In this document: piece after piece, positions 1 to 22,075 of the stretch
Numbering within the stretch: the stretch's first letter is position 1
How the letters are laid out: every line of letters begins with the position of its first letter
NCBI RefSeq assembly: GCF_003597125.1
Contig: NZ_QYYA01000002.1
Location: forward strand, 700,156-764,155
Reading direction: 5' to 3'
DNA from: Alcanivorax profundi
GTDB taxonomy: Bacteria > Pseudomonadota > Gammaproteobacteria > Pseudomonadales > Alcanivoracaceae
DNA length: 64,000 nucleotides
The notes under the pieces: generated by a model
What the model was told of the DNA's origin: nothing
Seen by the model: the letters and a program-made list of their open reading frames with translations, nothing else
Databases searched by the model: none
Translations under genes and position numbers: made by a program

Positions 1-259
1 TTCTTTCCTTGTCAACAAACTCCATCCCTAACCGGCAAGGGTTATATGTGCCAGGCGCAGTATTGCAATGGCTTAATGCCACATGGTTATCGTCCTGAAC
101 TTCCACATTGTTGTGCATCTTTAAGGAAAGCTGGATTGCATTCTTGCCTGTGACCGCTTCCAACTCTTCGTCTTGCATTGGACGTAATGTCTCAGCGGCA
201 ACCTGTATCGGAGCGAATATCCATATGAACAAATAAAACGGAAGGAATTTTATTTTCAT
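1..259 (-). CDS. N-terminal part of secreted paralog C; the gene runs off the window start. Not in the ORF track. Signal peptide MKIKFLPFYLFIWIFAPIQVAA, then ETLRPMQDEELEAVTGKNAI.
   Basis: Manual reverse-complement translation from ATG at 257-259 with a GGGAGG RBS 7 nt upstream; open to position 1. Hydrophobic signal; post-signal motif M-Q-D-E-E-L-E-A-V-T-G matches paralogs A and B. Low GC. Confidence 0.5.
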   Translation of the reverse strand, partial: MKIKFLPFYLFIWIFAPIQVAAETLRPMQDEELEAVTGKNAIQLSLKMHNNVEVQDDNHVALSHCNTAPGTYNPCRLGMEFVDKER

Positions 260-275
260 TATCTTGCCTCCCCTA

Positions 276-1577
276 TCAGCAGAACGTGCTGGATCCATAA
301 CAGTTCTGTGCCCTTTGCATCTGAAACTCCGGGTGCTCAATCAGAAAACCCGGCGCCGCCAGAAGGGGCAATACATCGATAACGGTCTGATTACCCAAAT
401 CAAAATCATCATTGAATACATCTACCAACTTTGCACTTGGTGCATTCAGCCACCACCCTGTATTGGCAGGAACGGCATAAGCACTATGACAACGAGACGT
501 ATCCATATTCGTTGTTGCACATGCGTCCAGCGCCACCCCCATCTGACCATTCTGGGTAAATTCTTCCGTCGGCGTAATTTTGCTGTACCTCGGGTAAGCC
601 ACAGCCTCTCTCTGGAACGAGAGGAAGAAATCACTGGTATCCACAAAAGCCAGACCATGCACACTTCGGGCATCAGTATTCAGCTGTGCATACACATCAT
701 TTAATCCCAACGCCTGTAACGCAGCCACCACCCCGCTGCCATTCAGCGTAAGTTCTGCGGCGCGCAACCCCAACGTTTGCATCCTGGTACCGGCAAGATC
801 AACAAACACAGAATCACTCTGGTTGGTACCGCACAAATCCACGTTAGTGGCGGTCCGCCCTGTACAGCCCCATGCATCAAGCCCAATAGCACCAAGGCAT
901 GCACCAAAGACTATCCCCAATGCACAAATATTTGCCTTCACCCTCATAGTCAGTGACAAGTCTGTACCCAGGAATCCACTCACGGTATTGAGCCCGGAGT
1001 GGCATCCGACAACTCCGGATCCTGTAGCCGCTGAAGGATTGCACGAACTGGCGAATCCATTGTTCTCTTCGTTGGTGACACCCTGATAGTAACGACGACC
1101 AGTAGCCATAAATCCATTGACCGTGGCGGCACCAATTTTGATACCCACCACCTCTCTCATGGTCCGGGTATCATCATTTTTAATGGCAAATTCCATGTAC
1201 GGACGGTCCAGTATCACCGGGCTCTGGGAATCTCCCGCCTCATATCCATCGCGCCCCATCATCGTCACGTAATCAATATCAATATCACAGCCAGCATGAC
1301 CCGAAAGGTGGTCATTGATGCCGCCGCAACCTAGCTGAAGTTTGGACATATTGAGATTGAGCTGCATCTCACCGTCCATTCCGATACGGTAAAAATTAAA
1401 TGGGGTTGAGTATTCATTTGCCCCAGTTAATTCATCCCCTCGGACCATGTCCGCAACGAAAAGGCCTTGCCCTGATACATCACGCAGTGAGTCGTCATCC
1501 ATCTCAGTCATAGTGTGACGGAATGCATCCACATTCGTACAAGAGATCATCAGCTTCCGGGATATTGTTATTTTCAT
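276..1577 (-). CDS. Paralog B (about 433 aa): Gly/Ser/Thr/Cys-rich protein of unknown function with no obvious signal peptide. Carries the MTEMDDDSLRDVSGQGL motif near the N-terminus.
   Basis: ORF 276..1604. The internal ATG at 1577 (MKITISRK) lies 11 nt after the stop of paralog A; the alternative GTG at 1604 overlaps A. Motif shared with A and C. About 48% GC. Confidence 0.6.
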   Translation of the reverse strand: MKITISRKLMISCTNVDAFRHTMTEMDDDSLRDVSGQGLFVADMVRGDELTGANEYSTPFNFYRIGMDGEMQLNLNMSKLQLGCGGINDHLSGHAGCDIDIDYVTMMGRDGYEAGDSQSPVILDRPYMEFAIKNDDTRTMREVVGIKIGAATVNGFMATGRRYYQGVTNEENNGFASSCNPSAATGSGVVGCHSGLNTVSGFLGTDLSLTMRVKANICALGIVFGACLGAIGLDAWGCTGRTATNVDLCGTNQSDSVFVDLAGTRMQTLGLRAAELTLNGSGVVAALQALGLNDVYAQLNTDARSVHGLAFVDTSDFFLSFQREAVAYPRYSKITPTEEFTQNGQMGVALDACATTNMDTSRCHSAYAVPANTGWWLNAPSAKLVDVFNDDFDLGNQTVIDVLPLLAAPGFLIEHPEFQMQRAQNCYGSSTFC

Positions 1578-1587
1578 AATGGAATCC

Positions 1588-3348
1588 CTACGGAGCTCCG
1601 GCACCGTAGCTGGTAAATTTCATATAATTAATCTGCATCCCTTCAATGCGTGCATCACCAAGATTCACAACATCTGTACGAATGACAGGGAGGCCTGCGG
1701 CCGGAGCCTGACTGGATACGTCAAACAGCTCTGAAGGATCTTGTCTTGAAGCATGGGTATAGCGACTGCCAGCATTAATGCTGTAGCTTCCGCCATACCC
1801 GCAGCGATAGGCATTGCTTCCCGTTCCTGCACTACAAGAATCAGACTGCGCATAGTAGCGGCCATTATCTGTTCTACTTGAGGCAGATATTCCGCGTGGC
1901 GTGTATGAACCACAGCTGCTTCCACCCGGGCAGGTGTACTGGTTATTTCCAGGCCGAACATCAACCGCTGTGATCATGTAGGCAAATGCATCAAAGTCAT
2001 TACACCCTGTACATTTCCTGAAAAAGACACCATCACTAGTCGAATTAAATATATTTCGATCGGGGTGCGAGGCATTCCCTGTGTGAACAGACGGGCAACC
2101 AATTCCACGGCATGGATACCAGTCTCCCCATCGTGAATAACCGTGAGTCACGTTGTAGCTTTCAGGTAGTTCTATGTCTGCTAACGGGATGCCATAAGTA
2201 CTGCTGACATAGTTTTTATAAGCACCAATATTCGCGCCTGGGGTACTTTCCAGAAGTGCCAATCGTGCGGTAATAAACCCTGCCAAGGTGTGACCATTCG
2301 GATCATTTGAGTCTGCAGTTGTCTCCGGAACAGCAAATGAATAGAAATGCTCCATGGCCGCATTAAGGGGGTTACTTGTTGGAATAGAGGGGTCTCTAAG
2401 ATAGGGAATTTCAAGAATAAAATTACCGTCTTGTTGCGGTACGGCATCCAGGGTCAACGCCTGGTAAAAGAGCTGTCCCAGAGGAATAAAGGCATCCACA
2501 TTCTTGAAATGTAGACCTTCCTGTTCATCAAAGATGACAGGAACCCCGATGACATCACTGCCGTTATTGCCTGCGCCACCGTTATGTTGGGCAGCCGAAA
2601 AGCGGAAATCCCCGCGCAAATGGCTGTGGTACATAATCGCGAATGTTTCATTCCCTGGCTGGGTGTGTTGAAACATCCTGAATATTGAGCCCGCGGCATT
2701 ACCCTGAATCAGGGTCTGAGTTTTGAGAAAATCGCCAGAACCGGTCCCCAGATTTTCATTCGCTCCAGTGCGTCCTGCTTCAATTTCTCCCCAAAAGGCA
2801 AAGTTATAGTAGGGCTGCTGTGTCGGCGCGACGTATTCGTATACCGTCTTGTCCGGATTATCCGGATCACTGTTCAGAACAGTTCCGTCGTAGCTGTATC
2901 CCGTGGGGGAAAAAGCCCGCAGTACATAGGGATTATCATAGGGGGAGAAATCGGGAATCACCCCTCCGAGAGGACACGCCAAGCCCGTTCCGGTGCAGGC
3001 GCTGCCAAAGGAGCCGGTGGACGCGTCCCAATGAAAACCTTCATTACCAGAGGAGCCATCTGGAACTGCAGTGATGCTGAGCCCATACCAGCGCATGTCA
3101 GCACGTTGAAAGGTGGTATCCCCAACGGGATCCGTTCCCATTTGTTCGAAGTAACTGGTTGGCTTGGTCAGCCAGCGAAAATCTTCAAAGCCCAAGGCAA
3201 TGCCGGCTCCGCTGACATCGGACATGGCAGCGTCATCCATGCGCTCCATCGCTGCCAGGCTGCACAATGGCAACAGGGCCAGCAGGCCGAGCAATCCTGC
3301 CCGTGCCGAATAGCACACTTCACGCATGCACTGACGCATCGTCTGCAT
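1588..3348 (-). CDS. Paralog A (about 586 aa): secreted Gly/Asn/Ser/Tyr/Cys-rich protein of unknown function. Signal peptide ...AGLLGLLALLPLCSLAA, then mature N-terminus MERMDDAAMSDVSGAGI.
   Basis: ORF 1588..3369. Several in-frame ATGs (3369, 3348, 3339, 3327) precede the hydrophobic signal, so the start is uncertain. Many Cys pairs (CRGIGC, CTGC, CPGGSSC). Low GC. Confidence 0.65.
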   Translation of the reverse strand: MQTMRQCMREVCYSARAGLLGLLALLPLCSLAAMERMDDAAMSDVSGAGIALGFEDFRWLTKPTSYFEQMGTDPVGDTTFQRADMRWYGLSITAVPDGSSGNEGFHWDASTGSFGSACTGTGLACPLGGVIPDFSPYDNPYVLRAFSPTGYSYDGTVLNSDPDNPDKTVYEYVAPTQQPYYNFAFWGEIEAGRTGANENLGTGSGDFLKTQTLIQGNAAGSIFRMFQHTQPGNETFAIMYHSHLRGDFRFSAAQHNGGAGNNGSDVIGVPVIFDEQEGLHFKNVDAFIPLGQLFYQALTLDAVPQQDGNFILEIPYLRDPSIPTSNPLNAAMEHFYSFAVPETTADSNDPNGHTLAGFITARLALLESTPGANIGAYKNYVSSTYGIPLADIELPESYNVTHGYSRWGDWYPCRGIGCPSVHTGNASHPDRNIFNSTSDGVFFRKCTGCNDFDAFAYMITAVDVRPGNNQYTCPGGSSCGSYTPRGISASSRTDNGRYYAQSDSCSAGTGSNAYRCGYGGSYSINAGSRYTHASRQDPSELFDVSSQAPAAGLPVIRTDVVNLGDARIEGMQINYMKFTSYGAGAP

Positions 3349-3387
3349 GACGCACTCTCCCATATACATATACGTTATTCTTATTTC

Positions 3388-3415
3388 CTATCTGTTAACA
3401 AATGTTCACAGATAG
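3388..3415. promoter_or_regulatory. Palindromic candidate operator (ctatctgt-N12-acagatag) in the AT-rich promoter region upstream of paralog A
   Basis: 8-bp perfect inverted repeats flanking ttaacaaatgtt, 20-45 bp upstream of the paralog A start codon. Confidence 0.4.
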
Positions 3416-3654
3416 TTTCTATAGCTTTACACACGGTGGCGCGATCGTACTGGCCAAACAATGATCAGCAAGCGTTATTTTGTATACGCAGTTTTATTTC
3501 CTTGTTTTGTAAGAAGATTTTCCGTTTGTCGCCGGATGGGCGGAATGGTCAGAAATGCGATGTATTTGGCCAATCGGGTAGACGGGTTGTTTAGGAAACG
3601 CTTTGTTTATCAACCGTTTACGGGGGATGGGTTCCTGCTGCCGCTGCATGTGCA

Positions 3655-3690
3655 TACTGGGCAATCGCGCCGCCAGCGACGCTGCTACGG
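3655..3690. repeat. Family A repeat fragment (caatcgcgccgccagcgacgctgctac) at the 3' end of mnmE and the island boundary
   Basis: Near-identical to 17311-17339 and 22008-22034. Confidence 0.45.
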
Positions 3691-3709
3691 CTGTGAGTTT
3701 CGAGGTGGC

Positions 3710-5077
3710 TTATTTGCCGATGCAGAAGGAGGAGAAGATGCGGCCGAGCAGGTCATCGGCGGTGAAGGCCCCGGTGATCTCTTCCAACGCTTTTTGGGCG
3801 GCGCGCAGGTCTTCGGCGAGGAGTTCGCCTGCGGCATGGCTATGCAGTTGCGCCCGGCCGTTTTCCAGGGCCTGCAGGGCCTGCTCCAGCGCAGTGATAT
3901 GGCGGCGGCGGGCCGAGAATCGGCTTTGTCCCTCCCCTTGGTAGCCTGCCACCTGTTTAAGGTGGTCACGGAAGGCGGGGAGCCCCTCTCCCGTGGAAGC
4001 GGACAGTACGAAGCAACCATCCGAACGCGGCCCGCAGGGCAAGCCGGACAAGTCCGCCTTGTTGAGGATCACGGTGATGGGAAGCGCCAGATCCTCCAGC
4101 TGTTGCTGACTCTGCGGCAGCAGGCTGTGGATATCCTGTGAATCTATTGGCTGTTCCCGGGAATCCACCATGACCAGCAACCGGTCGGCTTTTTTGATTT
4201 CAGCAAAGGCCCGGCGAATACCTTCCTGCTCGACCACATCGGCACTGTCACGCAGGCCGGCGGTATCAATCAGGTTCAGCGGCATGCCATCAATCTGAAT
4301 GGATTCACGCAGCACATCTCGGGTAGTGCCCGCAATGTCAGTGACGATCGCCGCATCGAACCCGGCCAGGGCGTTCATCAGGGACGACTTGCCCGCATTG
4401 GGCTTGCCCGCAATGACCAGGGTCATCCCTTCTCGGACCAACCGGCCTTGCCGGGCCTCATCCAGCACCCGCAGGCATTGCTGGTGCACCGCATGCAGGT
4501 CACCGGCCACCTTGCCGTCTGACAGGAAGTCGATTTCCTCTTCCGGGAAGTCGATGGCGGCTTCCACATAGATACGCAGGCCGATCAGGTCTTCTACCAG
4601 TTGATTCACTTCGCTGGAAAAAGCGCCCTGGAGGGAATTGAGCGCGGCTCTGGCAGAGGCTTCTGTTCCGGCATCAATCAGGTCGGCGATGGCTTCCGCC
4701 TGGGTCAGGTCCATCTTGTCATTCAGGAAGGCCCGTTGTGAGAACTCCCCCGCGCGGGCCTGCCGTGCACCGGCATCAATACACGCCTTCACCAGCAAAT
4801 CGAGAATGACGGGGCCGCCATGCCCCTGCAATTCCACCACGTCTTCACCGGTAAAGGAGTGTGGCGCGGGGAAATAGATGGCCAGGCCTTCGTCGATGAC
4901 CTGTCCTGCGGCATCCCGAAAGCGGGCAAAGTGCGCCAGGCGCGGGGTCAGTTCGCGATCGCCGCAGATTGATTTTGAGATGCCAGGGGCTGCAGGCCCG
5001 GACAGACGCACCACACCCACCCCACCCCGGCCGGGGGCGGTAGCAATGGCAACGATGGTGTCAGCGGAATTGGGCAT
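3710..5077 (-). CDS. mnmE: tRNA modification GTPase MnmE (TrmE)
   Basis: ORF 3710..5113. N-terminus [28 protein letters not shown]-domain motifs ([16 protein letters not shown]) and C-terminal CIGK are typical of MnmE. Start taken at the internal Met. Confidence 0.92.
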
Positions 5078-17185: not shown

Positions 17186-17340
17186 TTGTAGGAGCATCGC
17201 TCGCGGCGCGAACATCTTGGCCTGGGACGGGTAACGAGTTTCTAAAACCTTGAAACCGAATGGTCTGAGGGTTTTATCTTTCGAAACTCGTTTTCATCAC
17301 TCACGACGTTGTGATCGCGCCGCCAGCGACGCTCCTACAG
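17186..17340. repeat. REP/MITE-like element, family A: a full copy with terminal inverted repeats tgtaggagcatcgctcgcggcgcga ... gtgatcgcgccgccagcgacgctcctaca
   Basis: The terminal 25-mers are reverse complements. Interior matches the 15125-15275 copy. Confidence 0.7.
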
Positions 17341-17354
17341 CAGTGTTGGGTGTA

Positions 17355-21994: not shown

Positions 21995-22075
21995 TTGAAA
22001 ACGCTGACAATCGCGCCGCCAGCGACGCGCCCACGGCAAGGGCGGTAGGAGAATTCAAACGGGCTTTCCCGAAAT
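21995..22075. repeat. Partial family A REP/MITE-like element
   Basis: caatcgcgccgccagcgacgcgcccac ... ggtaggaga. Confidence 0.5.

Follow-up and report, generated by a model that had tools for sequence, protein, structure and literature searches.

Three consecutive genes, here named A, B and C, were found on the minus strand directly downstream of mnmE (3710..5077) and yidC in a 64-kb stretch of Alcanivorax profundi DNA (the window). A fourth tagged gene of the same operon, D, lies beyond base 1 of the window and was seen on near-identical contigs. Sequence comparison showed that the four products come from four unrelated families with nothing in common beyond ~30 N-terminal residues; this shared part begins with a tag placed directly after the signal peptide. 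We read the operon, with a confidence that stays just short of an even chance, as encoding a co-acting extracytoplasmic assembly for hydrophobic substrates, in which the tag would serve as a recognition or processing signal after Sec export.

A shared tag on four unrelated families

The genes and tag-coding segments within the window are as follows.

1588..3348, minus strand: gene A, first gene of the operon, 586 aa, identical to WP_119917883.1 (hypothetical protein, Alcanivorax profundi)
3208..3240, minus strand: segment coding for the A tag, MDDAAMSDVSG
276..1577, minus strand: gene B, 433 aa, identical to WP_119917882.1 (annotated as hypothetical protein)
1470..1502, minus strand: segment coding for the B tag, MDDDSLRDVSG
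1..259, minus strand: 5' part of gene C, 86 of 236 codons, with a signal peptide (…IQVAA, then ETL) followed by the tag
146..178, minus strand: segment coding for the C tag, MQDEELEAVTG

A purine-rich ribosome-binding site was present 5' of each of the three start codons. The three consecutive minus-strand open reading frames (ORFs) had already been described at these positions in an earlier reading made from the sequence alone, and this description was confirmed, including the 16-nt gap between B and C; the gap from A to B was measured as 10 nt and not as the 11 nt given there. On the near-identical contigs, complete C comprises 236 aa and D comprises 700 aa. The product of gene A consists of a Sec signal peptide (…LPLCSLAA, then MER), the tag and a beta-rich body with 13 Cys. 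In B, a beta-rich body comes after the tag; it has 10 conserved Cys columns and terminates in a conserved NCYGSSTFC. D starts with a signal peptide and then reads LTPLDDTSLSSVNGRDG. Full-length members of the C family end in an invariant, aromatic stretch, R-F-D-G-x-x-x-[VILM]-[YF]-G-[FY], which in its sequence resembles the beta-signal of outer-membrane proteins. As previously noted, the motif follows the signal peptide at once in A and C, and B of this strain carries the motif without a hydrophobic signal peptide.

The bias toward Gly, Asn, Ser, Thr, Tyr and Cys reported by the sequence-only reading was also found: the first five residues make up 34-38% of A and B compared with 22-26% of mnmE and yidC, and A and B contain 13 Cys each. 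The number of conserved Cys columns is 10 in the B family, 3 in A, and 2 each in C and D. Conserved Cys columns in all four families suggest disulfides and, with them, an extracytoplasmic location. The view of A, B and C as exported, Cys-containing and uncharacterised proteins was supported.

The tag, [LM]-x-[DE]-x-x-[LM]-x-x-[VI]-x-G, was found directly after the signal peptide in 155 of the 158 members of the four families. Counted from its Gly as position 0 (Ala in a minority of sequences), it has L/M at -10, an invariant D/E at -8, L/M at -5 and V/I at -2. The residue after the Gly varies with the family, being A, T or E in A, Q in B, and Q, R or G in C and D. An amphipathic beta-strand follows the tag, and the whole shared module measures about 30 residues. 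In a six-frame scan of the window, the strict pattern occurred four times, and three of these occurrences were the N termini of A, B and C. The occurrence of the tag is far beyond chance. In the AlphaFold2 (AF2) model of B, the tag was disordered, with predicted local distance difference test (pLDDT) values of 38-50, and the strand after it was confidently folded.

The genes had been described as three tandem paralogs of one family. When A, B and C were compared with each other by BLASTP, only the 11-17-residue motif could be aligned. With hhalign, using alignments from about 40 loci per family, all six family pairs gave significant matches (E = 2e-7 to 9e-5), which covered only 24-56 N-terminal columns. 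A tandem paralog array was rejected because neither method detected similarity outside these columns. The shared motif itself thus held up in a proper alignment for every pair, and the suggestion that it is a shared processing, sorting or docking signal gained support, since it is the sole feature common to the four families, is homologous to the N terminus of the Acinetobacter protein FilA (DUF6160; see below) and has the look of a double-glycine leader.

Scans of A, B and C against Pfam and NCBIfam returned only sub-threshold matches, to DUF6160 and to the N terminus of FilA, and no relative of any of the four families was detected among PDB sequences by profile search. With 345 representative clusters in 1.84 billion proteins, the B family is a small one, and in many of these clusters the match is confined to positions up to ~170 of the B profile. 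The fold of B was confidently predicted by modelling as beta-rich, and it is without detectable relative among solved structures. The toxin reading suggested earlier was not supported, as no toxin or adhesin domains were found in the Pfam, NCBIfam and PDB profile searches.

The module and its genomic setting

To place the operon, 42 loci were retrieved through B-family homology and further loci by exact protein look-up. All four genes were present in every complete locus of the ~45 examined, in the order A-B-C-D or A-C-B-D. Co-occurrence of the four genes through a change of gene order points to a joint function. The carriers belong to the Alcanivoracaceae, to Moraxellaceae metagenome-assembled genomes (MAGs) and to other Gammaproteobacteria, with one A-family match labelled as a Marinobacter MAG. 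Several genomes contain two copies of the module. In one Alcanivorax MAG (L045 5738-14863), a complete A-C-B-D set is directly followed by a second A-C-B, the fourth gene of which was not detected by BLAST.

The site downstream of mnmE had been called a variable spot next to the origin. Among the loci sampled through B homology, the module was located directly after mnmE in 12 non-redundant Alcanivorax-type loci, and carriers of this arrangement include A. nanhaiticus, A. jadensis, sp. DG881, S6407, DP30, IL2 and an Alloalcanivorax MAG. In comparison with the window, mnmE of these 12 loci is 84-90% identical, whereas A-D are only 25-77% identical; C and D drop to 25-30% across the mnmE-adjacent loci. 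Depending on the Alcanivorax lineage, the site beside mnmE is taken up by one or the other gene order. At this site the module looks like a fast-evolving or exchanged cassette in a fixed position.

The region between mnmE and A and a deletion in B contain the following features.

3349..3709, minus strand: mnmE-A intergenic region, presumed seat of the operon promoter and operators
3388..3415, no strand assigned: palindrome CTATCTGTTAACA-aa-TGTTCACAGATAG, with 13-nt arms, ~40-65 nt upstream of the A start codon; candidate operator
3669..3691, no strand assigned: GC-rich 23-mer GCCGCCAGCGACGCTGCTACGGC, similar to repetitive extragenic palindromic (REP) elements, just 3' of the mnmE stop codon, marking the locus boundary
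1554..1555, minus strand: junction of a 27-nt in-frame deletion in B, located by DNA alignment with the near-identical contigs L001 and L002

Across six Alcanivorax lineages, identity is 77-81% in the 150 nt that lie upstream of A (3349-3498), compared with 66-74% for the A coding sequence, and this higher conservation of the upstream DNA holds for loci of either gene order. The palindrome at 3388..3415 is kept in L001, L007, L009, L010, L028 and L042. Another conserved palindrome, similar to TGATCATTGTTTGATCA, was observed farther upstream of A, together with a GTATACAAAAT box. A scan of the intergenic region for the sigma-70 consensus found no promoter-like site. The REP element reported at the border of the locus is real: the 23-mer has three copies in the window (3669-3691, 17319-17341 and 22015-22037) with 0, 2 and 3 mismatches, and 0 are expected by chance.

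The lower GC content of the genes had also been seen correctly, and it acts at the codon level. At third codon positions (GC3), the content is 0.49-0.51 in A and B compared with 0.71-0.74 in mnmE and yidC. Overall GC is 0.50-0.51, against 0.57-0.62 in the neighbours, and base composition and codon usage are atypical in the sense used for genomic islands. Module copies linked to mnmE lie 3-9 points below their flanks in GC, whereas second copies elsewhere in the genome equal theirs; a persistently low GC3 is confined to the mnmE-linked copies.

From these features the sequence-only reading had arrived at a recently acquired low-GC island carrying three paralogs of a toxin, adhesin or uptake family. 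The atypical GC3, the position at mnmE and near the origin and the REP-like border element agree with such an island, and the much faster evolution of A-D relative to mnmE and the two gene orders at one site are compatible with cassette exchange. Against this stand the finding that the proteins are not paralogs, the presence of the module at this one junction in 12 non-redundant loci, which come from many species and divergent Alcanivorax-type genomes, and the conservation of the upstream regulatory DNA. Among the called genes of L001 and L003 there was no integrase, tRNA or flanking direct repeat, no toxin or adhesin domain was found in the proteins, and a search of a plasmid collection gave solo B homologs only (Acinetobacter) and no A-D module. 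The island is thus already largely refuted, and we consider it very improbable. The module has long been resident as a fast-evolving cassette under a conserved control region of its own; it is not a recent island, as follows from the shared site in 12 of the loci retrieved through B homology, the 25-77% identity of A-D and the conserved upstream DNA. An ancient acquisition or cassette exchange is possible in view of the persistently atypical codon usage and the two gene orders.

The deletion in B removes MMHWIFTTL, the hydrophobic core of the B signal peptide. It was seen on a single contig, that of A. profundi, while intact variants of the same 90% cluster are present on more than 70 contigs. 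The other B homologs, including those of sister genomes, have normal signal peptides. The missing signal peptide was therefore rejected as a property of the family; the deletion is on record for this genome only. Unless it stems from an assembly error, export of B in this strain is improbable.

The surroundings of the module were examined in 28 loci outside the mnmE site. Among 102 flanking ORFs, 13 match Arabinose_bd (AraC regulators) and 14 match alpha/beta hydrolases of the S15/S33 type, and the Pfam census of these ORFs revealed no recurrent peptidase, usher, secretin or transporter; Peptidase_C39 and Toluene_X were absent from its recurrent families. One Alcanivorax-type genome (L049) has the module between two AlkB-type FA_desaturase genes, together with further AraC regulators, PhyH, an acyl-CoA dehydrogenase, a wax-ester synthase (WS_DGAT) and a DAGAT acyltransferase. 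At one other locus an AraC-type regulator and an S15 hydrolase lie directly upstream. In the lineage of the window, D is followed by a TetR regulator, a COG4313/Phenol_MetA_deg channel, an acyl-CoA synthetase and a resistance-nodulation-division (RND) pump. The COG4313/Phenol_MetA_deg channel gene (L001 15266-16015, minus strand) is found just downstream of D in five lineages (L001, L007, L011, L028 and L042) and is directly convergent to D in L007 and L028.

A candidate signal read after export

A shared domain model connects the module with proteins outside Alcanivorax. The Pfam family DUF6160 (PF19657, cut-off 27 bits) is defined by a signal peptide, the tag and about 50 residues. D scored 31.8 bits and is a member, as is FilA, which also passes the gathering score. 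A (18.9 bits), B (13.9 bits) and C (19.2 bits for the partial and 17.7 for the full-length protein) match profile positions 9-51 and lie below the cut-off; the mature parts of A-C belong to families without a Pfam model. The earlier statement that no known family matches was not supported, the suggested check against DUF6160 being positive for D and below threshold for A, B and C. DUF6160 has no assigned function and is mentioned, in passing, by a single paper of the literature searched. With the NCBIfam FilA model (NF050077; 220 bits, 279 positions), D gave the best score, 30.8 bits over positions 13-65 only, and A, B and C scored ≤15 bits; none of the four is thereby a FilA protein. D and FilA are homologous over ~105 N-terminal columns (hhalign probability 94%, E = 9.5e-8).

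The fil operon of Acinetobacter was reached through a published filF primer, which gave gene fragments in metagenomes only, and then through FilF fragments on longer contigs (L060 5983-11119 and L058 5190-10843). FilA is a DUF6160 protein of 290 aa that reads …ANAMA, then MQSMDDAALSAATGQDG. FilB (NF050078) is a C39 peptidase with intact Cys and His motifs, FilC (NF050079) is a FapF-like barrel, FilD (NF050080) belongs to the OmpP1/FadL family of transporters, and FilF is a lipoprotein. In NCBIfam searches FilB matched FapD ('fibril amyloid maturation endopeptidase') at 1.7e-31 and FilC matched the FapF transporter at 1.3e-17. The Fil architecture is Fap-like rather than similar to any classical pilus pathway, and FilF, a vaccine candidate, has no detectable domain. 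The name 'pilus' for Fil is an annotation (PMC4751259, PMC3203104). No study of how Fil functions was found in the literature on DUF6160, the fil operon and A1S_0690; the reports found deal with in-silico vaccine prediction, immunisation of mice with recombinant FilF and expression data.

In a tblastn search of the window and ~54 module loci with FilB, FilC, FilD and FilF, no match was obtained except for a FilD-like fragment at the edge of L023. Acinetobacter itself has a solo tagged B homolog of full length: WP_106984526.1 of A. cumulans p1_060092 (474 aa; L061 8923-10347) lies between a flavodoxin gene and smpB, carries a signal peptide followed by LLDDQELSKVNGQALL and ends in NCYGGLKFC. 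In A. baumannii (records H2-H6) a B-like locus and the fil operon share a chromosome record and lie far apart on it; among the 'plasmid' records of PLSDB, several are whole A. baumannii chromosomes. The solo B homolog of Acinetobacter is a hint that machinery reading the tag may act in trans.

The closest relatives of FilB in the plasmid collection were encoded in fap-type operons of Aeromonas, Photobacterium, Croceicoccus and Cupriavidus. NCBIfam matches to FapB, FapC, FapD, FapE and FapF were obtained for the Aeromonas locus, and Pfam added a FapF-like barrel for Croceicoccus. In three of these operons, the protein in the FapE position, immediately after a FapD-type peptidase that itself bears a signal peptide, has a signal peptide and a tag-like segment: LTDDEMSSLRGG followed by F in Photobacterium (L066 9594-10100), LSEEVLARQRGG followed by I in Croceicoccus (L065 9567-10280) and ELADGELAHLRGR followed by Y in Aeromonas (L064 9593-10237). 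The Cupriavidus operon showed a weaker tag match on its upstream side. FapD is periplasmic, its catalytic Cys is required for secretion, and FapE alone loses ~70 N-terminal residues (PMC5557850, PMC6173800). According to the same papers, of 2017 and 2018, FapD's substrate had still to be determined, and the closest structural relative of FapF is the COG4313 channel (PMC5557850, PMC6173800). The tag on FapE-position proteins, taken together with the publications on FapD, makes the tag a candidate recognition element for peptidases of the FapD/FilB class, on the basis of resemblance rather than proven homology. The double-glycine-like segment of the FapE-position proteins is also a candidate for the site at which FapD cleaves, which the two papers give as undetermined.

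The possibility that the module contains such a barrel in hidden form was rejected at the level of sequence: hhalign probabilities for A, B, C and D as FapF/FilC or COG4313 barrels were <2% (≤0.2% for FapF/FilC). The COG4313 channel beside D was likewise rejected as a FapF/FilC-like protein by BLAST and hhalign.

The spacing of the tag also equals that of double-glycine leaders. When the Gly of the tag is taken as leader position -2, the conserved tag positions coincide with L(-12), E(-8), L(-7) and I/V(-4) of these leaders, and across 155 sequences L/M, E (frequent), L/M and V/I were found at the equivalent columns. C-family orthologs with a tag ending in GG match the leader model TIGR01847 (bacteriocin_sig) with 16.4 and 15.2 bits (cut-off 15.7), and the matches end on GG.

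In the explanation we favour, A-D would work jointly in a single assembly outside the cytoplasm, located in the envelope or at the cell surface. The tag would be a leader-like signal that is recognised after Sec export, and possibly cleaved, in the periplasm, by analogy with FilA beside FilB/FilC and FapE beside FapD. Because no such machinery is linked to the module, recognition or processing in Alcanivorax would have to act in trans. A role on hydrophobic substrates, such as attachment to oil or lipid interfaces or substrate capture, is suggested by the recurring neighbours (AraC/Arabinose_bd regulators, hydrolases, AlkB, wax-ester synthase and COG4313) and by the taxa that carry the module.

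The chief competing explanation, a self-contained docking model, is one that we hold to be rather unlikely. Here the tag would be a short helix that, with an edge beta-strand, joins A-D head to tail in the periplasm or outer membrane; as a variant, the hetero-oligomer could be a conduit or binding platform for hydrophobic molecules that needs no dedicated machinery. Several observations fit this model. No accessory gene recurs in cis over ~50 loci and the four tagged genes always co-occur, the amphipathic strand after the tag belongs to the confidently predicted B fold, and the conserved C-terminal Y-G-F strand of the C family could pair with a partner. The models of A and B also gave weak structural echoes of curved beta-sheets, outer-membrane barrels and lipid binders (LptA/C, JlpA and COG4313), but all of these matches were non-significant (Z ≤5.8 on a model with pLDDT 61; Z ≤3.4 for B). 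The solo tagged proteins, namely FilA, the Acinetobacter B homolog and the FapE-position proteins, adjoin a C39 peptidase or share a genome with one, which argues for an external reader of the tag and hence against docking among the four partners.

Sec export generally benefits from acidic residues directly behind the signal-peptide cleavage site. It could be supposed that the acidic, amphipathic segment merely optimises Sec export or signal-peptidase cleavage, or is read by a general periplasmic factor such as a chaperone, and that A-D are independent periplasmic or outer-membrane proteins of lipid metabolism that happen to share an operon; the lack of dedicated machinery in cis and the metabolic neighbours are in line with this. 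The pattern of L/M at -10 and -5, V/I at -2 and G at 0 in ~40 loci per family is, however, too specific for a charge bias. It occurs essentially nowhere else in the window and is homologous to the N terminus of FilA, and the strict co-occurrence of the four genes through the change of gene order speaks against independent proteins. We regard this explanation as quite improbable.

Several points weigh against the favoured explanation, in which an external factor reads the tag. No FapD/FilB peptidase or FapF/FilC barrel was found in the window or within 8-10 kb of ~50 modules, although Fap and Fil always have peptidase and barrel in cis. Comparison of A-D with a three-sequence FapE profile by hhalign aligned the same 17 columns with non-significant E values of 0.015-0.07. 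The conserved Gly is rarely followed by a second Gly, and the tags of the window (G-A in A, G-Q in B and G-K in C) gave no match to TIGR01847. Cleavage of the tag in these proteins is a supposition by analogy. The structure model of A is of low confidence, the lipid or alkane link comes from gene neighbourhood only, and the module loci were sampled via B homology only. Since B lacks a working signal peptide in A. profundi, the system may be impaired in this strain.

A wider version of the favoured explanation appears unlikely to us. The DUF6160-type module might be a general post-Sec secretion tag, equivalent to a periplasmic double-glycine leader, that FapD/FilB-class C39 peptidases read and perhaps cleave to allow passage through FapF/FilC-class outer-membrane barrels, with FapE and FilA as clients in cis and A-D and the solo B homolog of Acinetobacter as clients in trans. 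A-B-C-D would then form a surface structure of four components, used where the cell meets oil or lipid. If this were true, the recognition sequence of FapD would be identified and the 'hybrid' secretion pathway would have a wider repertoire of clients.

Irrespective of the mechanism, the module is a conserved exported system of four components, wholly unannotated, that the Alcanivoracaceae, as the main oil degraders of the sea, share with Moraxellaceae and other gammaproteobacterial MAGs and that is set among genes of alkane and lipid metabolism. How cells engage water-insoluble substrates is still poorly understood, and the operon is a concrete candidate for this process. One short tag with the spacing of a double-glycine leader links DUF6160, the Acinetobacter Fil vaccine-candidate locus and Fap amyloid secretion, and its presence on FapE-position proteins and FilA makes it a testable candidate for the FapD recognition sequence.

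Relation to known secretion systems

A periplasmic PapD-like chaperone or an outer-membrane usher, as in chaperone-usher pili, was found neither in A-D by Pfam nor among the recurrent flanking families. The class III signal of type IV pilins and pseudopilins (G followed by F-T-L-I-E, with a hydrophobic N-terminal helix) was absent; read from the sequences, the N termini are signal peptides of class I, which have A-x-A type sites and lead into an acidic segment.

Double-glycine leaders, known from class II bacteriocins, microcins and RiPPs, form the extreme N terminus of small cytoplasmic precursors, have no Sec signal and end in GG, GA or GS. They are cleaved in the cytoplasm by the C39 domain of an ABC transporter, and no ABC/C39 exporter is linked to the A-D module. 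In contrast to these leaders, the A-D tag stands after a Sec signal peptide on large proteins, and its -1 residue is mostly Q, R, A or T.

The Fil operon is similar to the A-D module in that FilA has the same tag after its signal peptide and is homologous to D in its N-terminal ~105 columns. Each operon encodes uncharacterised proteins exported by Sec, each is found in Gammaproteobacteria using hydrophobic substrates, and both are associated with outer-membrane channels of hydrophobic-compound families, FilC and FilD within Fil and the COG4313 channel beside A-D. The two differ in composition: Fil has one tagged protein with FilB, FilC, FilD and FilF in cis, whereas the Alcanivorax module encodes four tagged proteins without any of these partners, and A, B and C have no Fil counterpart.

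Compared with the FapB/FapC-type subunits of the functional-amyloid secretion system Fap of Pseudomonas, A-D are large Cys-containing proteins of 236-700 aa without a match to the NCBIfam FapB and FapC models, although no search aimed at Asn/Gln-rich repeats was made. As in Fap, the components of the module would all be Sec-exported: signal peptides are present on A, C and D and, in sister genomes, on B. FapD and FapF are relatives of FilB and FilC, the companions of the DUF6160 protein FilA. The tag of the FapE-position proteins, L-[ST]-[DE]-[DE]-x-[LM]-x-x-[LQ]-R-G-[GR], has the same spacing as the tag of A-D.

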